Shown: in pieces, positions 5,940 through 53,212 of the stretch
How the letters are laid out: each line of letters opens with the position of its first letter
Position numbering within the stretch: position 1 is the first letter of the stretch
Source: Candidatus Nealsonbacteria bacterium
GTDB lineage: Bacteria; Patescibacteriota; Minisyncoccia; Minisyncoccales; JAUWAW01
DNA: 58,175 bases
Reading direction: 5' to 3'
NCBI GenBank assembly: GCA_030601865.1
Contig: JAUWAW010000003.1
Span: forward strand, 1 to 58,175
Made by a program: the position numbers and the translations under genes
The notes under the pieces: model-generated
What the model saw: only the letters and a program-made list of their open reading frames with translations
Told to the model about the DNA's origin: nothing
Database searches by the model: none

Positions 5940-6434
5940 ATGTCTAAAATCTTAAAATTAGATATTCTATTAGTAGCCATAATCTCTGGGGCTTTAGTGC
6001 TTTCTCCGGCTGCCTTGGGGTTGAAACCTCAACTAATTCCTTTAATGCAGGATGGGGAAAATTTAGAGAGCAGATTATTAACTTTTCAGCAAAATATCTT
6101 AGTGCCCATTTCAAATCCTCCCGGTTCGGGGCCAAAAGTGGTCAGGGAGGTAAAGACGATTGCCACTGGCTATTCCAGCACTTTTGACCAAACCGACGAG
6201 ACGCCTTTTATCACTGCTTCTGGCACCCAGGTTAGGGAAGGCATAGTGGCTGCTAATTTTCTGCCCTTTGGCACAAAAATACGGCTGCCTGAACTTTACG
6301 GAGATAAAATTTTCGTGGTTGAAGACCGAATGCATCCCCGCAAGAAATACCAGGTGGATATCTGGTTTCCCAACCGTGAAGATGCTCTCAACTTCGGCGC
6401 CGAGATAACCTACATTGAAGTCCTGGAGGGATAA
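5940..6434 (+). CDS. 3D-domain (MltA/Rpf-like) secreted cell-wall protein
   Basis: N-terminal hydrophobic anchor. C-terminal TGYSS..DETPFITASGT..GIVAAN..FGT..DRMHPR..VDIWF matches the 3D domain pattern. Confidence 0.7.
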   Translation: MSKILKLDILLVAIISGALVLSPAALGLKPQLIPLMQDGENLESRLLTFQQNILVPISNPPGSGPKVVREVKTIATGYSSTFDQTDETPFITASGTQVREGIVAANFLPFGTKIRLPELYGDKIFVVEDRMHPRKKYQVDIWFPNREDALNFGAEITYIEVLEG

Positions 6435-13345: not shown

Positions 13346-13387
13346 AGAGAATGGTCGGGATAATATCCCGACCAAATTAATTTGAAA

Positions 13388-41712: not shown

Positions 41713-42854
41713 TGTTTGTTCATCCGCAGATAAAACTAAATAATTTGGACAAGGTAGTATTTTCCTTGTTTAAAAGGCTGGATTTTAAAAGTTTAAAGGA
41801 GAAACTTTCTCTTTACTTTCCAGAAAAGCAGTTTATCCTTACTGATATGGGCAGGATTGGTTTTCGTCTTGCTGTTGAGAACCTAGGGCTTGAAAATTCT
41901 GAAATTTTAATGCCTGCCTATATCTGCGATATCTTTCAGCCGATTTTGAAGCAATACAATATCAAACCCATTTTTTTGGATATTGACCTTAAAACTTTTA
42001 ATCTTAGGGTTGAAGAGATAGAAAATAAAATTACTTCTCAAACCAAGGCAGTTTTAATCTCTCATACTTACGGACTTCCCAATGAAATGGACAAAATATT
42101 GTTTTTAGCTAAAAGCTATAATCTGAAAGTAATTGAGGACTGCGCTCATAGTTTTGGCGCTAAATATGGTTCGACAAGCTCACCACAAGTTCTTGGTAAT
42201 TTCGGTGATGTTGCCTTTTTCAGTTTGTATAAACAATTTCCGACTCTGCGCGGCGGCCTTTTGGTCTGTCCTCAAGATTGGCAGGTTCGTCTACCCAAAA
42301 CCCGTTTCAATTTTCGCGACTTTATTTCTCTTCTAAACTGTTTTTCTTTTTTTGCCTGGTTTTTTAAAAAATTCGGCGGCAAGGTTGCTCCTAAAATGCT
42401 TCGCAAAGAAAAACTTAAAAAGCCAGCCGGCCTTAACCATGTTTCTTTAAATCTTTTTTCCAGTTTTTGCCACGACTTTGAGAAGAACTTGGCAAAAAGA
42501 AAAGAATTAGCTCTATTTTTCCAGGAAGAACTTAAAAAAATGGATTTCCAGGTTCAGGAACCCGAAAACAATGTCTTTTGTTTTCTTTCGGCCTTAATAC
42601 CAGACGCTCTACGAGAAAAAAGAGATGAATTTGTTAAACACCTAAGAAAAAAAGGAATTTTCTGCACCCGCATTTGGCACACACCGATTATTTTAAATAA
42701 ACAAGCCCAAAGAGAATATAATATTGACTTAAACGAATTTCCCAACACTATTGAAGCAGCCAAAAGAATAATTAACTTCCCCCTGCAAAACTTTTATAAT
42801 AAAAAAGACATTGAAAAAATGATAGACAAGATTAAAAAAGTAATTGCAAAATGA
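41712..42854 (+). CDS. DegT/DnrJ/EryC1/StrS-family sugar aminotransferase
   Basis: IEDCAHSFGA, GDVAFFSLYKQF (PLP-Lys), the typical fold order, about 380 aa. Confidence 0.7.
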   Translation: MFVHPQIKLNNLDKVVFSLFKRLDFKSLKEKLSLYFPEKQFILTDMGRIGFRLAVENLGLENSEILMPAYICDIFQPILKQYNIKPIFLDIDLKTFNLRVEEIENKITSQTKAVLISHTYGLPNEMDKILFLAKSYNLKVIEDCAHSFGAKYGSTSSPQVLGNFGDVAFFSLYKQFPTLRGGLLVCPQDWQVRLPKTRFNFRDFISLLNCFSFFAWFFKKFGGKVAPKMLRKEKLKKPAGLNHVSLNLFSSFCHDFEKNLAKRKELALFFQEELKKMDFQVQEPENNVFCFLSALIPDALREKRDEFVKHLRKKGIFCTRIWHTPIILNKQAQREYNIDLNEFPNTIEAAKRIINFPLQNFYNKKDIEKMIDKIKKVIAK

Positions 42855-43336
42855 GTGATATTATAAAGCTATTAGAAGAATTCGCCAAAAAACTGCCTAA
42901 GTTTCCGGATGGCAGGATTGATTATACCAAGGCAGAAAAAGTGCCGGTGGTTGATGTTTGGGTTAAACACAAAGACAAAATTCTTTTAGTTAAAAGAAGC
43001 GACAAAGTAGCCAATTATCAGGGCAAATGGAATGTGGTAAGCGGGTATTTGGATGAGATAAAGCCGCTTAAGCAAAAAGCCGCAGAAGAACTACAGGAAG
43101 AACTGGGCATTGAAAAAGACAGCATTTTGTCACTTGATGCAAAGCAACCTTATAACTTTGTAGATGAAGGCAGAACTTGGATTGTTCACCCGGTTTTGGC
43201 CGAACTCAAAGAAAAGCCAGAAATAAAACTTGACTGGGAGCATACCGAGTACAAATGGATTCTTCCCGAGGAACTGGAAACTTTTGACATCATTCCTGAT
43301 CTTAAACAAGTAATCAAAAAATTAATTGAGGAGTAA
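42851..43336 (+). CDS. NUDIX hydrolase
   Basis: Nudix box GYLDEIKPLKQKAAEELQEELGI. Confidence 0.75.
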   Translation: MSDIIKLLEEFAKKLPKFPDGRIDYTKAEKVPVVDVWVKHKDKILLVKRSDKVANYQGKWNVVSGYLDEIKPLKQKAAEELQEELGIEKDSILSLDAKQPYNFVDEGRTWIVHPVLAELKEKPEIKLDWEHTEYKWILPEELETFDIIPDLKQVIKKLIEE

Positions 43337-43340
43337 ATTT

Positions 43341-43898
43341 ATGGAAATTGAGATTAAAGCAAAAGTAAAAAATTTAGCAGGGGTACGGGAGAAGGTTTTG
43401 GCGGCTGGCGCTAAAAGGATTGGTGAGAAGCATCAACTCGATGTTTATTTGTCGCCGCCGCACAAAACATTTTTCAAAACCCGCTATTATTTAAGAGTGA
43501 GACGTGATTTGCTTGGTGGCGGAGATAGTTTTGATTATCATATTCTTGAGAAAGGGCTTGGCGATTCCTCGGTTGCTAAAGAAAAAGAGGTAAGAGTAGA
43601 AGACGGTAAAGTTTTGTTGAGCATCTTAAGAGATTTGGACTTTACAGAGAATTGTCGTATAGAAAAGAAAAGAGAAGTTTTTGATTTGGACGATTTTGAG
43701 ATTGTATTAGATAAGGTTAAAAAGCTGGGTGATTTTATTGAGGTTGAACTTGAAGGTAGGTCTGAGGACGAACCAAAATACAGAAAAAGAATCGTTGCTT
43801 TTTTAGAGAAGTTGGGAGTAAAAGAAAATCAGTTCTGTCAAGATGCTGGTTATATTGAGTTAATGACGGGCACTTCAGCTCGGGACTGGGAGAAATAA
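43341..43898 (+). CDS. CYTH-domain protein (class IV adenylate cyclase / triphosphatase fold)
   Basis: It starts MEIEIKAKV (ExExK signature). YLRVRR, and the acidic pairs EVELE near the C-terminus. GAGGAG RBS before ATG 43341. Confidence 0.65.
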   Translation: MEIEIKAKVKNLAGVREKVLAAGAKRIGEKHQLDVYLSPPHKTFFKTRYYLRVRRDLLGGGDSFDYHILEKGLGDSSVAKEKEVRVEDGKVLLSILRDLDFTENCRIEKKREVFDLDDFEIVLDKVKKLGDFIEVELEGRSEDEPKYRKRIVAFLEKLGVKENQFCQDAGYIELMTGTSARDWEK

Positions 43899-43917
43899 AT
43901 TAATTGAGAAAAAATCT

Positions 43918-44229
43918 ATGAAATTTATTGTTAAAAAGTCAAAGGAGAATGTTTTGAGCTTGATGAGGAGATTGGGTTATACGCCAGCAGGAAGCAGGGG
44001 AGAGGAGCTTAGTTGTTTTAGGCGGCTTGACGTAGGGCATTATCCTCGTTTTCATCTATTTGTAAAGCAGGAGCAAGATAAAGTTATTTTTAGTTTACAT
44101 TTGGATCAGAAAAAGCCTTCATATGCCGGCACTACTGCTCACAAAGGAGAATACCAGGGGGAAATAATCCAAAGAGAAGCAGACAGGATAAAGAAAATTG
44201 CCGCAGGATTTGAAGGTCCAAAAATTTGA
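43918..44229 (+). CDS. hypothetical small basic protein
   Basis: 103-aa ORF in the operon context. No motif recognised. Confidence 0.4.
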   Translation: MKFIVKKSKENVLSLMRRLGYTPAGSRGEELSCFRRLDVGHYPRFHLFVKQEQDKVIFSLHLDQKKPSYAGTTAHKGEYQGEIIQREADRIKKIAAGFEGPKI

Positions 44230-45945: not shown

Positions 45946-45992
45946 CAAGGGAAAATAAAACAGGGTTTTTGACCCTGTTTTATTTTCCCTTG
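45946..45992. terminator. long perfect hairpin terminator
   Basis: caagggaaaataaaacaggg-tttttga-ccctgttttattttcccttg (20-bp stem). Confidence 0.8.
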
Positions 45993-46679: not shown

Positions 46680-47037
46680 CATAAAACTTTGTAAGAAAAA
46701 ATGGTATCCTTCCCTCGGCAACGAAATGCCGAGGGTTTGTCGTTATTTGATGAAAAATGGAATGATGCCAGGAGAGGGCCCAGTCCACCATATCAAATTG
46801 ACTGCTCTCCACGGCAAAACTTTCCACGCGGGAATTAACTTACCCCAAGAGAAATTCGGAAAAAGAAAAGGAGCAAGAATCATCTATATCAAGGAAAGCG
46901 CCAATTTAGTTAAAGTGATCTATGTGGGTGGACATAAAGATAAAAGATACGATAATTCTTTTACTCAAGTAAGTCTCATTGAAGATAGATACCAAACAGA
47001 AAGCTATTTGCTTTATAATGAGGGTTTTGAATTTTAA
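46642..47037 (+). CDS. putative cognate toxin (RelE/ParE-superfamily-like)
   Basis: Small basic protein overlapping the antitoxin 3' end. GARIIYIKESANLVKVIYVGGHKD resembles the RelE/ParE beta-strand core. The start is uncertain. Confidence 0.45.
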   Translation: MKQILLHSEVLNDIKLCKKKWYPSLGNEMPRVCRYLMKNGMMPGEGPVHHIKLTALHGKTFHAGINLPQEKFGKRKGARIIYIKESANLVKVIYVGGHKDKRYDNSFTQVSLIEDRYQTESYLLYNEGFEF

Positions 47038-47063
47038 TAAACCAATTTTTTGAAATAAAAATT

Positions 47064-47088
47064 GCCCAGCAATGGGCTTTTTGTTTTT
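47064..47088 (+). terminator. intrinsic terminator after the TA pair
   Basis: gccca-gcaa-tgggc followed by tttttgttttt. Confidence 0.6.
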
Positions 47089-47098
47089 AAAAAATAGA

Positions 47099-47110
47099 TT
47101 TGACCCCATT
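47099..47110 (+). repeat. TTGACCCCATTT motif, copy A
   Basis: Exact 12-mer. The extended match aaatagaKttgaccccattt is shared with copy C. Confidence 0.85.
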
Positions 47111-47142
47111 TTTCATAAATCTACTCCTCAACTTGTCCTGAG

Positions 47143-47201
47143 CCCTTCGACGATGCTCAAGATAAACCTGTCGAAGGACTTATCCTGAACTTGTCGAAGG
47201 A
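47143..47201. repeat. hairpin plus extra arm between convergent genes
   Basis: ccttcgac (47144-47151) pairs with gtcgaagg (47170-47177). A third arm, gtcgaagga, lies at 47193-47201. Confidence 0.8.
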
Positions 47202-47936
47202 TTAATTTTCCGACTTTTTGTTCGGCTTGTTTGAATTTTTTGTCTTCATTTTCAATTCACAAAGCAAATTCTCAAATCCTCGAATATAACCCTTTAGATT
47301 GTCAACTTTCGGCCGAATACCACTCTTGTTGGAAAAAGCAAACTTAGCAAGCGCTTGATAAATAATTTTTATATCATTATAGTATTTCTTAACCTTTTTC
47401 TCGCAATGAAAATCGTTTATAATATCCCATTTTGATTTCCTTAATAATTCTCCACAAAAATCACTCAATGCACCTGCATAACTTTCAAAATCAACTAATT
47501 TTAATTCTGTCGGTCCTGGAATCTTTTTCTTTTTACTTTTTATATATAGATGCAAAATTTTTGCTTCGAAGAATTCTTCTTTTGCGGCAGAAAAATCTTT
47601 TTCAAGTTTTGTAATGAACAAATGACTATTCTGAAAATCACCCATTTCTAGCTTAGAATCCTGTAAGAGTTTACCTAAACAAGTTTTCGCTCTTAATAAC
47701 TTTTTGTCAAATTTTTCTAATTTCTTTCTTGTCTCGTTTAATATTTCTCCCGCTTTTCTTAAATCATTATTGATGGTATCATTCATAGCCTCTTTCGAAG
47801 AAGTACGTATATCACCACCGAGCTCATTCAGCTCTCTAACAAAATCCTTGATTACATTTAAAGTTCTTCGGCATTTTTTCTCTAAAGTTTCTTCCTCCTT
47901 CTTAAGTTTAATCAAATACTTTTTTAGATATTCCAT
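47202..47936 (-). CDS. translin/TRAX-family-like protein (COG2178-like)
   Basis: All-helical 244 aa. EEFFEAKILH (E-x-x-E) and YAGALSDFCGELLRKS (Y..G..D...GEL.R) match the translin/TRAX signature as I recall it. Confidence 0.5.
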   Translation of the reverse strand: MEYLKKYLIKLKKEEETLEKKCRRTLNVIKDFVRELNELGGDIRTSSKEAMNDTINNDLRKAGEILNETRKKLEKFDKKLLRAKTCLGKLLQDSKLEMGDFQNSHLFITKLEKDFSAAKEEFFEAKILHLYIKSKKKKIPGPTELKLVDFESYAGALSDFCGELLRKSKWDIINDFHCEKKVKKYYNDIKIIYQALAKFAFSNKSGIRPKVDNLKGYIRGFENLLCELKMKTKNSNKPNKKSEN

Positions 47937-47979
47937 AAATTTTATCCCTCAATTAATTTTTTGGGTTTTGTTTTCCCCG

Positions 47980-49050
47980 TCAATACTGAAAAAATTTTCT
48001 GCAACTCTCACTGCCCACAAAGCTACTAAAACCACATGTATTTTCTTCTTTTTCAATAAATGACTTTCGACCTTTCTCAAATCCAAACGCATCAAAACCT
48101 CTCTTACTTTCTATATAACCTCTTGTGAGATTTCTCTCCACCTCTTCTACGTCTTCCTTATTCTTCGCTACTATGACCGTAGGTATAGTACCCCTGACAT
48201 TATCCACCAATACTTTAACAAAGGACTCGTCAACACCCCTCCAACCAATTATTAAAATGCGGTCTATTTGAGAAAAAATATTGTTTAAATCTTCAAAAGA
48301 AACTAAGTGTTTGTGGCTTGGAATCGGCGAAATCAATGCGGGTCTTATAGCATATTTAAATTCTTGTCCTTTTAATGCCTTGTCAATACGAGATAAAGGA
48401 TAAGCTTCTCCAGGATTTACAAATTTACTGAAAGGTATAATGTTTTCATCAGAATCATCCAACGGGACACCAAGTGGTCGTTTTTCTCGGAGAAAAACAC
48501 AAAATTGTTCGCAGGAACCGTGAGGATTTTTTATCGTACACCTATTTATTCCCTTAAAAGCTTCATTGGCCAAGGTATCGTAATTAAAAGAAACAACACA
48601 GACATACGATTCTTTCTCGTCCTCTAGGAAATCGGATGCTAGTCCTCTTAAATTTTTGTAATTATTTGGAAATCCTCCCAACTCTTGAGATAGAAAGTGA
48701 AACAAAAGCTGCAAAAAATAGCTAAACATTTTTAATTCTTCCTGGCGGGTCTGATCGTTACTTTTTAAAGCCCTGTTCCACAGCCTTTCAAGTTCTCCTT
48801 CCAAATTATTAGTATCAGAAATTTGCAAAGAAGACAGTATATTAGTTACAATATCTCTCTTTCTTAAAATAATTCCCTTCAATTTTTCAATTGTTTCACT
48901 TCCATTATCATTTCTTTCAACCATTTTCATCACATAATCAAAATATATATTTTTGCCTAAATCTTTAACCAAAGGAAATGTTAGTTCCCCTTTTTCATGC
49001 GAATAACCACATGACGCTCCAGCACCTAAAATGATTAATGGATATGGCAT
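47980..49050 (-). CDS. SIR2_2-type (defence-associated sirtuin-like) protein
   Basis: PLIILGAGAS, VVSFNYDTL, KNPHGS, RILIIGWRGVDESF in the SIR2_2 order. ATG 49050 (RBS gagga) is preferred over the TTG at 49065. Confidence 0.65.
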   Translation of the reverse strand: MPYPLIILGAGASCGYSHEKGELTFPLVKDLGKNIYFDYVMKMVERNDNGSETIEKLKGIILRKRDIVTNILSSLQISDTNNLEGELERLWNRALKSNDQTRQEELKMFSYFLQLLFHFLSQELGGFPNNYKNLRGLASDFLEDEKESYVCVVSFNYDTLANEAFKGINRCTIKNPHGSCEQFCVFLREKRPLGVPLDDSDENIIPFSKFVNPGEAYPLSRIDKALKGQEFKYAIRPALISPIPSHKHLVSFEDLNNIFSQIDRILIIGWRGVDESFVKVLVDNVRGTIPTVIVAKNKEDVEEVERNLTRGYIESKRGFDAFGFEKGRKSFIEKEENTCGFSSFVGSESCRKFFQY

Positions 49051-49098
49051 AATTTTATTCCTCAATCAATTTTCCGATTTTTTGAATTGAAAATGGGG

Positions 49099-49110
49099 TT
49101 GACCTCATTT
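49099..49110 (+). repeat. TTGACCTCATTT motif, copy B (preceded by an inverted half, aaatgggg)
   Basis: gaaaatggggttgacctcattttt. Confidence 0.8.
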
Positions 49111-49169
49111 TTCGCTCACTCTGAAAAACAGACCTGATACCATTTTCCTTTTAAACCTCAAGTGTTTAA

Positions 49170-49805
49170 TCAAAGAATTACCCCTCGTGATTCTTTATCT
49201 ATAAATCGTATCTCAAGCAAAATTAGCTCATAACCAAATATTGCTCCCAAATGGTGTAGAAAAGCGTGGGACCCATACTTAAACCACTTCGCGGCAATCT
49301 CTTTTTTTAGCTCTTGATAATAACTCTCTATTTCTTCTCGATTAGTATTTTTATCTATTTTATCAACTTTGTTTTCTTTCATTTCTTTAATCAAGTTTAT
49401 AAACATATCACATACGCCCGTTATATAGTATGGCCATGTTTTGTTAATAACTATTGGCCAATGACTATCACCTGTCCCTTCTATTTTTTCAGACCCTTCT
49501 CTTATTGCGACCTTGTTCTCCAAATAATTTTCTTTGATAAAGTTAAAAAACTTATTAAAGGTTATATGTTTGAATATCTTGTTAGCATTGTCAACTTCCG
49601 TATAAAGTATAAGTGATAATTCATGCCCACCTTCATCTTTTGTTGCCCTCCTGTGAAACCGCCATAGTTTAAGTCCGCCTCTAAATTTTTCAATAGCAGG
49701 GGTAATCAAGGAATCTATTATTATTAAATCAATAAAAAGTTTAGCAGGGGAAGTTTTATCCCATTTTATTTTAAAACTTATCCAGTACCATTTATTTTTG
49801 TTCAT
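49170..49805 (-). CDS. hypothetical protein, weak resemblance to SpaB_C / thiopeptide-type dehydratase C-terminal domain
   Basis: 211 aa. WYWISFKI.., LKLWRFHRR...GGHELSLILY resembles the W..y...FFiRY..g.HLRLR pattern. Low certainty. Confidence 0.4.
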   Translation of the reverse strand: MNKNKWYWISFKIKWDKTSPAKLFIDLIIIDSLITPAIEKFRGGLKLWRFHRRATKDEGGHELSLILYTEVDNANKIFKHITFNKFFNFIKENYLENKVAIREGSEKIEGTGDSHWPIVINKTWPYYITGVCDMFINLIKEMKENKVDKIDKNTNREEIESYYQELKKEIAAKWFKYGSHAFLHHLGAIFGYELILLEIRFIDKESRGVIL

Positions 49806-49871
49806 ATAATTTGCTTTAGCAGAAAAGTACCTTCTTGATGTTTTTTTGTTTGACCAAGCTCTATAAAAGCA

Positions 49872-50141
49872 TTATTTGTATCCCTTTCTTCTCATTTTTT
49901 GATTAATTGTTGTTTTTTCTCTTGGCTTTCTAGCGATAACCACTTTCCTTGTATAGGATTTACCTACTTGCTTTATTATTAATTCCTCATCCCCTATTAA
50001 GTCCTTAAGAATTGCCTTGGCTTTCTGGTAACCGCTTTTCTTCTTTTCTGGAGCATTTATATCTGCTAATCGATAAAATCTTCCTTTTGTATCCTGGAAA
50101 GTGTCACCATCAATAATTTTCTTGACTTTAATCTTTGCCAT
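49872..50141 (-). CDS. minimal staphylococcal-nuclease (SNase/thermonuclease) fold protein
   Basis: 89 aa. KKIIDGDTF, FYRLADINAPE, SYTRKVV align with the SNase Ca-binding Asp residues and the Arg/Glu/Arg catalytic pattern. Confidence 0.55.
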   Translation of the reverse strand: MAKIKVKKIIDGDTFQDTKGRFYRLADINAPEKKKSGYQKAKAILKDLIGDEELIIKQVGKSYTRKVVIARKPREKTTINQKMRRKGYK

Positions 50142-50253
50142 AATTTTCTACAATCTTAACTTCTTCCGATGTGAGGTCGTAGAGTTTATAAACCATCTCG
50201 TCAATCTGGTGTTCGTATTCTTTGACTTTTGGATTAAATAGAGTTGACCCCAT
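50128..50253 (-). pseudogene. 41-codon remnant of a type IIG/type I/BREX-like methyltransferase C-terminus
   Basis: It translates to MGSTLFNPKVKEYEHQIDEMVYKLYDLTSEEVKIVENYGKD. ID..VY.LY.LT.EE..IVE is the characteristic C-terminal tail of such enzymes. Confidence 0.5.
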
Positions 50254-50255
50254 TT
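50244..50255 (+). repeat. TTGACCCCATTT motif, copy C
   Basis: attaaatagagttgaccccatttcc. Confidence 0.85.
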
Positions 50256-50298
50256 CCACTATTTTCTACTTTTTACTAATTTCCCGAGTTTATTTAGT

Positions 50299-51357
50299 TT
50301 ACTCTTTAAAACTTTTTATTAATTCTATAAATTGTATAGCATTTAATAGATATTTGTTTTTGTTGTTTCTATTATTGATTGTTTTGAAAATTCGGTTCCA
50401 ATGCAACGATGTTATCTTGCTATACTGCGCTTCTAAAATAATACAAAGACAAATTTTTTCTACCTTAAAATCTTTTTTTACTTTTTCTAATACCTTATTC
50501 TTATATTGAAAGATTGTTGCCGCATCCTTTGCCTGATTATCTTGCCCTCCACCCCTCACATTTTGTTCTTTATGGGTCCCGATAAGAAGAATTTTATTAA
50601 CTTTACAGATTGCATCAATTAATTTTGCGTCTTTGCTGGGTAGTGGAAAATTAATTTTTCTTGTTAAGCTTTCGTCTATCAACCAATTGGTATTGTTTAA
50701 AAAATAAATTGGTGGCTTCTGAGGATTGTATTCAAAGTCCGAGATATTCTTTTTAATATTATTGGAAATACGTTTGAAAATCATTTTATCAAACATAGCC
50801 TTTCTTCTTGTTGGATTTTTAATCTCTATATCAATAAGTAAATCATTAAGGCCAATCTCTGCAAAATTTTCTGACTCAACAAACAAGCTAAGAAAATCGA
50901 AGCTTAATAGCGCATCCATAATGCCATCTTTGTTGTTCACATAGTTTGCTTCAATATCCTCTAAAGATGTCTCATTAAAGAGTGTCCAACAAATTATCTG
51001 TAAACCATTAATGTTTGTTCTGTTTTTAGATAGAAATAACACAATTCCACTTAGGGCTTCCGCGGCTTTCTCAACTTGATGCAAGTCAATAAACTTGATA
51101 AATCTTTCAATAACTTGTCCTTGGTTATTCCTTTGCGTGGAAAAGCTCAATTTATGCCTTCGTTTAAGTATGCCTAAGTAGTCAAAGTAATTATTTATTA
51201 TCCCTATCTCTCTCTTGTGATTATTTGTTATAGTGAGCTTTGTGCTGACATCTTGAAACAACTTTTTATAAATTGCTATCAAAAAATCATTGTTTGCCTT
51301 CAGATAAACATCTTTTTTGAAGTCTTCAAGAACTTTTTGCGGAGTTATTGTAGTCAT
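50299..51357 (-). CDS. putative type II restriction endonuclease (partner of the adjacent methyltransferase)
   Basis: 352 aa with no recognisable family. 4-nt overlap with the upstream MTase gene, and very AT-rich. Confidence 0.45.
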   Translation of the reverse strand: MTTITPQKVLEDFKKDVYLKANNDFLIAIYKKLFQDVSTKLTITNNHKREIGIINNYFDYLGILKRRHKLSFSTQRNNQGQVIERFIKFIDLHQVEKAAEALSGIVLFLSKNRTNINGLQIICWTLFNETSLEDIEANYVNNKDGIMDALLSFDFLSLFVESENFAEIGLNDLLIDIEIKNPTRRKAMFDKMIFKRISNNIKKNISDFEYNPQKPPIYFLNNTNWLIDESLTRKINFPLPSKDAKLIDAICKVNKILLIGTHKEQNVRGGGQDNQAKDAATIFQYKNKVLEKVKKDFKVEKICLCIILEAQYSKITSLHWNRIFKTINNRNNKNKYLLNAIQFIELIKSFKE

Positions 51358-52499
51358 ATTATTAATGTTTTCTGTTGGGCTAGCTCTTCCAAATAAATAT
51401 AATTTAGTAATTTATAAGTGAAGTTAAAGCTGATTCTTTTTCTGTTGTTGTCTCTAAAATTAGTAAGAAATAATGAAAAATACTTTTCTCTTGCGCTTGA
51501 TAACTTTTTGTTGAAAAAATCAATTAACTGTTTCTGGGTTTCCAAATCAATTGTTTCCTTAAATAGTAAATGTGCCATATTTCTTGACGTCTCTTTACCA
51601 ACCAATCCTTTTACACTATAATCTCTGATGTCCTCTAATTGTATTTTCTTACCATTTTTACTGTCTATTGCTCTCAAAAAGATTATATTATGGTCCAAAA
51701 TATTATCAATATGCTTATTAACGCTATATGTTTTATGATTTTTGATATTGTTATGTGCTAATTTCACTTTTTTCTCTCCCGCAAGCAGATCTTTTTCTGT
51801 TAATCTGTATATACCTAAAAAGTTTTTTATAGAATTAATTTTTGAGAAAAATTCACCACCTAATTGCCAGCCGTATTCTTCGTTTAATACTAATTTCACC
51901 TTCTTACGGGCAGGGAATATTGTTGCGTCAATAACATTTTTTCTGGAAGGCTTTTTCTTTTTTCTATAGAAAAAAGATATCACATTGTACGTTGTGTCAT
52001 CAAATACTTGCTCCCAGAATATATTTAAAGAAACTATTTCAAATTTGTTAAAGAATATTCTCCGTATTTTTTCAGAATTTTTGGCGGATAAAAAGTTAAG
52101 GGGGACAATTAATATTCCTTCGTCTGAATTTAAAATTGCGTGTATCGAAACCTGATATAGATCTTCAAATTGGGAGTTTGAGCCAGTAAAATATTTTTCT
52201 TTTACTTCTTTGGTTGCTTTATTTTTATGTAAATAAGGTGGATTAGTTAAAACAAACTTATATTTTTTGACATAATTAATACTGTTATTTTTAAAAACGA
52301 TTTTATCATCTACATATGTTTGATCAACGTCAAACCCAATCACTTTTTTAGCTGCATGGTTTACAGCCCAACAAATCAAATCTTGATCACCGGCAAACGG
52401 ATCAACTATTTCTTTACCCACTACAAATCTTGAGAAACCTTGCAAGATATACTCTGAATTTTTAGTAAAAAACTGTCCGTTTAATCTTTTATGATTCAT
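51354..52499 (-). CDS. N6-adenine DNA methyltransferase (gamma-class)
   Basis: GQFFT, VDPFAGDQDL (motif I) and LTNPPYL (motif IV), in that order. Confidence 0.8.
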   Translation of the reverse strand: MNHKRLNGQFFTKNSEYILQGFSRFVVGKEIVDPFAGDQDLICWAVNHAAKKVIGFDVDQTYVDDKIVFKNNSINYVKKYKFVLTNPPYLHKNKATKEVKEKYFTGSNSQFEDLYQVSIHAILNSDEGILIVPLNFLSAKNSEKIRRIFFNKFEIVSLNIFWEQVFDDTTYNVISFFYRKKKKPSRKNVIDATIFPARKKVKLVLNEEYGWQLGGEFFSKINSIKNFLGIYRLTEKDLLAGEKKVKLAHNNIKNHKTYSVNKHIDNILDHNIIFLRAIDSKNGKKIQLEDIRDYSVKGLVGKETSRNMAHLLFKETIDLETQKQLIDFFNKKLSSAREKYFSLFLTNFRDNNRKRISFNFTYKLLNYIYLEELAQQKTLII

Positions 52500-53171: not shown

Positions 53172-53212
53172 GTTATACAATTTCATTATAACCCGACCAT
53201 TTGGTCAGTCAA
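53172..53212 (-). promoter_or_regulatory. lexA promoter with two palindromic operator candidates
   Basis: On the minus strand: TTGACT (53212-53207), 16 nt, TATAAT (53190-53185). The palindromes are GTTATA-N9-TATAAC (53172-53192) and GACCATTTGGTC (53195-53206). Confidence 0.45.

Follow-up and report, generated by a model that had tools for sequence, protein, structure and literature searches.

The DNA analyzed here is a 58,175-nucleotide (nt) stretch of a Candidatus Nealsonbacteria genome (GenBank assembly GCA_030601865.1, contig JAUWAW010000003.1, positions 1 to 58,175 of the forward strand), which we refer to as the window. Its minus strand carries four neighboring open reading frames (ORFs) that are the subject of this report. 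Gene 1 (49872-50141) encodes an 89-amino-acid (aa) protein that resembles staphylococcal nuclease (SNase) and consists of the oligonucleotide/oligosaccharide-binding (OB) fold core only, hence a mini-SNase-like protein. Gene 2 (49170-49805) encodes a 211-aa protein that is ferredoxin-like in its N-terminal half and weakly resembles the LanB/SpaB_C elimination domain. Gene 3 (47980-49050) encodes a stand-alone SIR2_2 protein of the “SIRim” type with catalytic Asn and His intact; it is 356 aa long from its ATG, and an upstream TTG at 49065 is a possible alternative start. Gene 4 (47202-47936) encodes a 244-aa protein of the translin family, a predicted TRAX-like nuclease of the prokaryotic C3PO type. 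The gaps between successive genes from gene 1 to gene 4 are 66, 119, and 43 nt, and the G+C content between 47 and 52 kb is 0.297 to 0.348, whereas most 1-kb bins elsewhere in the window have about 0.40. A first-pass annotation had described these genes as four minus-strand ORFs in an AT-rich stretch, and the ORF and composition data agree with that description. It had further proposed that they form a four-gene operon constituting a single undescribed defense module. Our comparison with related loci points instead to accessory genes that were inherited independently and form a mosaic.

We assembled 43 related loci (323 kb) from encoding-contig look-ups and from genome and metagenome scans, and searched every ORF of at least 40 aa with hidden Markov models (HMMs) of all four families. 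The sample includes SIR2 homologs (L001-L007 and L043), translin homologs (L008-L010 and L017-L036), homologs of gene 2 (L011-L016 and L038), and mini-SNase homologs (L037 and L039-L042). None of the 43 loci holds two of the four families. Each contains only the family through which it was found, and the window alone has all four. The neighbors of each family differ between lineages, and an all-against-all BLASTP comparison of these neighbors recovered no partner gene conserved across lineages. Synteny in other genomes had been set beforehand as the test of the four-gene module, and in these loci it is negative. Because no two families co-occur, their neighbors vary, and a repeated hairpin motif (motif B, described below) splits the block, the single-module proposal does not hold. 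The expectation that the genes match no catalogued multigene system is borne out by PADLOC-DB v2, which returned no system-specific match and no match at all for genes 1, 2, and 4; the sole match of gene 3 covers 15 residues of a generic SIR2 model. Searches of mobile elements were likewise negative: tblastn found no match for genes 1, 3, and 4 in phage records or for genes 3 and 4 in plasmid records, and the translin alignment found none in viral contigs.

Since no two of the families were found together in the 43 related stretches, we read the block as separate accessory genes in one variable, AT-rich region downstream of lexA rather than as one four-gene defense system. We put the probability of this reading at roughly 0.6, and with it that of the view that the mini-SNase, gene 2, the SIR2 gene, the TRAX-like gene, and an adjacent restriction-modification (R-M) pair are each independent cargo or residents. 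The adjacency of the SIR2 and TRAX-like genes, so far unique to the window, is best treated as coincidence, and adjacency within a variable island does not of itself speak for a functional module. Each component is a new and divergent member of a known family. All four families are sparsely sampled, with 10 to 55 homolog clusters for genes 2 to 4 besides the 198 cluster representatives for gene 1. Direct scans of the four proteins against Pfam, NCBIfam, PHROGs, and PADLOC were below threshold, with PHROG 452 for gene 1 as the one exception, so the family assignments that follow rest on homolog sets and predicted structures.

For gene 1, the Pfam SNase model (PF00565) gives an E value of 0.004 and 17.9 bits against a cut-off of 21, below the gathering score, and PHROG 452 (“endonuclease”) gives 2e-8. 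An exhaustive HMMER search recovered 198 cluster representatives at E≤1e-3, mostly 87 to 94 aa long and aligning end to end. In an alignment of 32 family members, the equivalents of SNase residues D21, R35, E43, and R87 are conserved, in the numbering of the Staphylococcus aureus nuclease. Gene 1 shares with staphylococcal nuclease and PHROG 452 the motifs IDGDT, RLxxxxAPE, and Y(G/T)R, which upholds the earlier call of a minimal SNase fold. Unlike staphylococcal nuclease, it is only about 90 aa long and lacks the C-terminal third with its helices, so that the full SNase architecture of OB fold plus C-terminal helices is absent; the metal ligand equivalent to D40 is also not kept in the family, the position being variable and occupied by Asn in gene 1. 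Because many full-length relatives likewise have about 90 aa, a truncated pseudogene was rejected, and gene 1 is best treated as a member of a separate mini-SNase family. Defense-type genes adjoin the mini-SNase homologs in all four lineages examined. In the window this is the R-M pair (50299-52499); in L037 (1282-2218), L039 (3-5879), and L040 (1360-3319) the contexts comprise a LexA-like S24 protein with an AAA_15 ATPase, type III Mod/Res, and an EcoRI methylase with GmrSD. The mini-SNase gene of L037 lies directly 3′ of the LexA-like gene. A family of about 90 aa that recurs beside R-M genes is thereby documented.

The score of gene 2 against Pfam Lant_dehydr_C (PF14028) is 15.5 bits (E=0.02; cut-off, 24.4), and a profile search against PDB sequences gave no match. 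Homologs fall into ten clusters with 34 to 61% identity, throughout which W48, H51, R52, H184, and H185 are invariant. The AlphaFold2 (AF2) model has a mean predicted local distance difference test score (pLDDT) of 82 and shows the ferredoxin-like fold in its N-terminal half. In a Foldseek search, the longest matches were to the LanB-type elimination domains of TsrL (7cww), MadB (9g04), and NisB (4wd9), all weak (E values of 3e-3 to 2e-2; TMq of 0.41 to 0.43), and viral structures searched with Foldseek yielded no meaningful match. The first-pass annotation had noted a weak SpaB_C-like pattern; this is consistent with the profile and structural resemblance and with the invariant His and Arg residues, but the support is as weak as those scores. 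Gene 2 also differs from LanB/SpaB_C proteins in being shorter, in scoring below curated thresholds, and in lacking a lanthipeptide or thiopeptide gene context. Its homologs are found next to an NYN gene, a NUDIX-CYTH pair, or an integrase gene. In L015 (4919-6657), the homolog lies directly 3′ of the NUDIX-CYTH pair. The window has a NUDIX-CYTH pair of its own at 42851-43898, about 5 kb from gene 2 and on the other strand, and the CYTH proteins of L015 and the window are 33% identical.

Gene 3 has no direct Pfam match at E≤1, and its nearest relative among 5.8 billion proteins is 30% identical. The homolog set is more informative: 27 of 33 homologs match SIR2_2 (PF13289), 4 of 33 match the AbiH model (PF14253), and 31 of 33 match generic PADLOC SIR2 models. 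Across the 33-sequence alignment, N156, D158, H177, and G178 are invariant and the GAGAS motif (residues 9 to 13) nearly so; within the IIGW motif, I268, G269, and W270 are invariant and I267 is nearly invariant. The AF2 model (pLDDT, 83; predicted template modeling score [pTM], 0.84) retrieves CobB, SIRT2, and the SIR2 chains of SIR2-HerA with Foldseek at E values of about 1e-5 and a probability of 1.00, and the best PDB sequence match of the family profile is again the SIR2 of SIR2-HerA (E=0.0056). Gene 3 thus combines a sirtuin-like predicted fold with GAGxS, the catalytic Asn (N-x-D), and the catalytic His, and its description as a stand-alone SIR2_2 protein stands, even without a direct Pfam match.

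Two known systems invite comparison with gene 3. AbiH is a stand-alone sirtuin-like abortive-infection or defense protein (PMC13064643; bioRxiv 10.1101/2024.09.18.613514). Gene 3 resembles AbiH of Lactococcus (PF14253) and the “SIRim” SIR2_2 branch (PF13289) in its length of about 350 aa, its stand-alone sirtuin-like fold without a fused sensor, and its retained catalytic Asn and His; it differs in that gene 3 itself matches neither Pfam model at E≤1 and shares no more than 30% identity with any protein found. The SIR2 of SIR2-HerA (PDB 8w9l, 8wld, and 8uae) is its best full-length structural match, with the highest TMq (0.46, for 8wld_R) among the 50 Foldseek matches listed for gene 3, but no HerA ATPase gene adjoins gene 3 here or its homologs in related loci. 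The SIR2 homologs are found with ParA/ParB, between rpsI and grpE-dnaK, near Ham1 and an ABC transporter, and in one restriction island. The last is L043 (1-12033), where homolog P0014 sits in a clear defense island with an MmeI/Eco57I-type methylase, a PLD-helicase, and GIY-YIG, DUF5677, and DUF4238 proteins. One of the few organism-labeled relatives, P0028, is a Patescibacteria protein.

Gene 4 matches Pfam Translin directly at an E value of 0.0014, below the gathering score, and the archaeal translin-like models of NCBIfam (PRK14562) at 2.7e-9; 22 of 24 homologs (34 to 58% identical) carry PF01997. Its match to PDB 5jr9, the Nanoarchaeum protein NEQ131, is limited to the C-terminal half (E=3.5e-4), in which the ExxE and DxxxE motifs are aligned. 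All 24 family sequences retain E121, E124, D159, E163, and R166, which align with Glu82, Glu85, Asp117, Glu121, and Arg124 of NeC3PO. In that enzyme, the four acidic residues are catalytic and Arg124 is substrate binding (PMC5100593). The protein thus matches the translin profile and carries all four acidic TRAX metal ligands, in keeping with the TRAX-like assignment made from its acidic motifs. The resemblance to archaeal single-subunit C3PO (NEQ131/NeTrax, PDB 5jr9; Archaeoglobus AfC3PO) extends over the four metal-binding residues and the Arg that follows; gene 4 is unlike these proteins in belonging to a bacterial host of the candidate phyla radiation (CPR) type and in having a longer N-terminal coiled region within its 244 aa. 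No second translin-family gene was found in the window, in agreement with a homo-oligomeric assembly.

The contexts of the translin homologs are equally varied. They include SMODS plus SLATT_4 and NUDIX, Fic with PDDEXK_1, PDDEXK_1 with an O-antigen ligase, and NYN, as well as housekeeping neighbors (a class II tRNA synthetase, Obg, SpoU, MFS, and an FMN reductase). The closest homolog (58% identical; L008, 4511-6693) lies directly 3′ of a SMODS nucleotidyltransferase and SLATT_4, a CBASS-like pair, with a Dam-type methylase and a large helicase further upstream and a NUDIX gene 3′ of the translin gene. One of the few organism-labeled loci, L020, is a Candidatus Saccharibacteria contig. Together with the SIR2 set, these homologs show that CPR-type bacteria have a divergent subfamily of stand-alone SIR2_2 proteins and a family of TRAX-like proteins, both with active sites intact.

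Two repeated noncoding motifs accompany the four genes. Motif B is a 20-nt imperfect palindrome, AAATGRGGTCAAMYCYATTT, with three exact minus-strand copies; at a setting of three mismatches, there are 5 matches against 0.14 expected. Copy 1 (AAATGGGGTCAACTCTATTT, 50236-50255) lies between the restriction-enzyme gene and gene 1, copy 2 (AAATGAGGTCAACCCCATTT, 49091-49110) between gene 2 and gene 3, and copy 3 (AAATGGGGTCAAATCTATTT, 47092-47111) past gene 4, where a G+C-rich hairpin follows (z=-2.1 for the 86-nt stretch). Each copy can fold as a small GGGG-UCAA-CYCY hairpin flanked by runs of A and U, and the copies divide the block into a gene 1-gene 2 part and a gene 3-gene 4 part. The motif B core recurs in other genomes, past the NYN gene beside the gene 2 homolog in L011-L013 (L011, about 7296) and in tandem past the translin unit in L027 (1574-1650). 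Motif B could be a weak terminator or attenuator, a protein-binding site (operator), or a cassette boundary. Two other candidate roles were rejected: as a phage att site, it gave 5 matches in a viral-contig scan, about the number expected by chance on a rough estimate, and as a sigma-70 promoter, it shows no convincing -10 box on reading the sequence.

Motif A has a consensus of about 25 nt, AAATTRATTGAGGRRTAAAWTT-ATG, and directly precedes a few genes: CYTH, a 103-aa ORF, SIR2, and translin. On the minus strand it lies upstream of gene 3 (AAATTGATTGAGGAATAAAATTATG, 49048-49072) and of gene 4 (AAATTAATTGAGGGATAAAATTTATG, 47934-47959), with ATTGAGGRATAAAATT exactly shared by the two, and an extra copy is found past gene 4 (47114-47131). 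Closely related plus-strand copies lie before CYTH and before the 103-aa ORF, 4 to 5 kb away (43319-43343 and 43897-43920), and in other genomes the motif occurs upstream of a translin gene (L025, 751-781) and of a gene 2 homolog (L011, about 5970-6003). Most other genes of the window lack a Shine-Dalgarno sequence. The near-identity of the initiation regions of genes 3 and 4, reported earlier, is therefore real but not specific, and as a particular link between these two genes motif A was rejected because it also precedes the unrelated CYTH gene and 103-aa ORF. Both motifs, A and B, occur around these genes in several CPR genomes and might delimit gene cassettes that can be exchanged.

Transcription of the block probably ends at a bidirectional, intrinsic-terminator-like hairpin (47064-47077) between gene 4 and a convergent toxin-antitoxin pair, the single intrinsic terminator for the minus strand in a consensus scan and located just past gene 4. 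An Rfam scan of 46900-50400 found no RNA family at E≤1. There are probably two bicistronic transcription units, gene 1-gene 2 and gene 3-gene 4, parted by weak motif B hairpins. If the genes are independent, gene 3 would act alone as an enzyme consuming NAD+ (oxidized nicotinamide adenine dinucleotide), in the way proposed for the single-gene AbiH, whose architecture it matches. By analogy with NeC3PO and AfC3PO, gene 4 would form a homo-oligomeric C3PO-type, Mg2+-dependent nuclease with a closed shell, inside which single-stranded RNA or single-stranded DNA would be cut. Gene 1 would be a small SNase-type nuclease or nucleic acid binder; its relatives repeatedly lie beside R-M genes. Gene 2 may be a lyase-like enzyme.

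Several observations weigh against the reading of the block as a mosaic. The four genes share one strand, short gaps (43 to 119 nt), and low G+C content, and their co-transcription in this genome is possible because there is no strong terminator between them. Defense-type genes accompany the SIR2 family in two of five lineages (the window and L043) and the translin family in three of about ten (the window, L008, and L009). The sample is also small, at about 19 independent lineages with usable flanks, and the nearest relative of gene 3 is so distant that the sample offered no closely related SIR2 beside which a translin gene might be sought.

We consider a housekeeping role in the nucleotide or RNA metabolism of this reduced genome unlikely for genes 3 and 4 and perhaps gene 2. 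The SIR2 protein would then be a deacylase or ADP-ribosyltransferase and the TRAX-like protein would serve in RNA turnover, with possible co-regulation with NUDIX-CYTH via motif A. That motif A also precedes CYTH and the 103-aa ORF, in a window whose other genes mostly lack a Shine-Dalgarno sequence, fits such a role. So do the order of NUDIX-CYTH and then a gene 2 homolog in L015 and of a translin homolog and then NUDIX in L008, the ribosomal, chaperone, and ParAB genes that adjoin SIR2 homologs, and the housekeeping neighbors of several translin homologs. However, all of the families have few detected homologs, unlike core genes; the SIR2 protein belongs to the SIR2_2 or immune-type branch that PADLOC SIR2 models match; the NUDIX proteins of different loci are not close relatives; and the region has the low G+C content of an island.

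A lineage-specific two-gene defense system formed by genes 3 and 4, with genes 1 and 2 as bystanders, appears doubtful and somewhat less probable than a housekeeping role. In such a system, sensing or cleavage of foreign nucleic acid would fall to the TRAX-like nuclease shell and NAD+ depletion to the SIR2 protein. In its favor, 43 nt separate the two genes, copies 2 and 3 of motif B enclose them, motif A precedes both, and the catalytic residues are intact in both proteins. Known SIR2 effectors usually have a nucleic acid-handling partner, such as HerA or pAgo, and a literature search found no paper combining translin with anti-phage defense. Yet the two families are paired at no other locus in a comparison covering, besides the window, 4 SIR2 lineages and at least 9 translin lineages with flanks; motif A also stands before unrelated genes, and SIR2 homologs occur mostly alone among housekeeping genes. 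Slimmer again are the prospects that the two constitute an undescribed immune pair confined so far to this lineage in which a C3PO shell is coupled to a SIR2 NADase. Translin and C3PO are RNA interference accessories in eukaryotes. Were the pair real, it would be the first link of this family to prokaryotic NAD+-depletion immunity and would add a new class of sensor or partner to that immunity; it would also give a function to bacterial translin homologs, to which none is assigned in the literature found.

It is very improbable that all four genes make up one operon-level defense module: they lie on one strand, with short gaps and in AT-rich DNA, a single G+C-rich terminator stands past gene 4, and R-M genes and a toxin-antitoxin pair are on their flanks, but no two members are syntenic in any of the 43 loci, a motif B hairpin intervenes between genes 2 and 3, mini-SNase relatives go with R-M genes and not with the other three families, and PADLOC recognizes no system. 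The block is thus most readily understood as the mosaic described above, in surroundings that are of the variable, defense-island kind, as first claimed.

Upstream on the same strand, the lexA product matches Peptidase_S24 (2e-23) and LexA_DNA_bind in Pfam. The R-M pair occupies the space between lexA and the mini-SNase gene; it comprises an Eco57I/N6_Mtase-type methylase (Pfam, 1.6e-7) and an ORF with a weak Tsp45I-like match (6e-4). Downstream, a SocA/Panacea toxin-antitoxin pair (SocA_Panacea, 3.6e-14) is convergent on gene 4. Pfam thus supports lexA, the Panacea pair, and the methylase among the neighbors named earlier, and the restriction partner weakly. The methyltransferase remnant reported there is present as a 41-codon minus-strand ORF (…IDEMVYKLYDLTSEEVKIVENYGKD*, 50128-50253) that overlaps the start of gene 1, but it has no Pfam or PDB match. 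It is probably what remains of the C-terminal tail of a methyltransferase, the one line of support being its likeness to the end of an MmeI/Eco57I-type methylase encoded in L043, and it suggests a past rearrangement at the gene 1 junction.

A perfect 21-nt inverted repeat (CAAGGGAAAATAAAACAGGGT / ACCCTGTTTTATTTTCCCTTG, 5-nt spacer) lies at 45946-45992, just past an asparagine synthase gene and ahead of the Panacea pair. A promoter-like site of lexA (TTGACT-16-TATAAT, 53185-53212) includes GACCAAATGGTCGGG. The decamer AATGGTCGGG has a second exact copy at 13350-13380, in a hairpin (GGTCGGGATAATATCCCGACC) past a ribosome hibernation-factor gene. A reading of the decamer as a LexA box faces just these two exact copies, one of them inside a likely terminator hairpin, and the decamer may be an operator or just a terminator.

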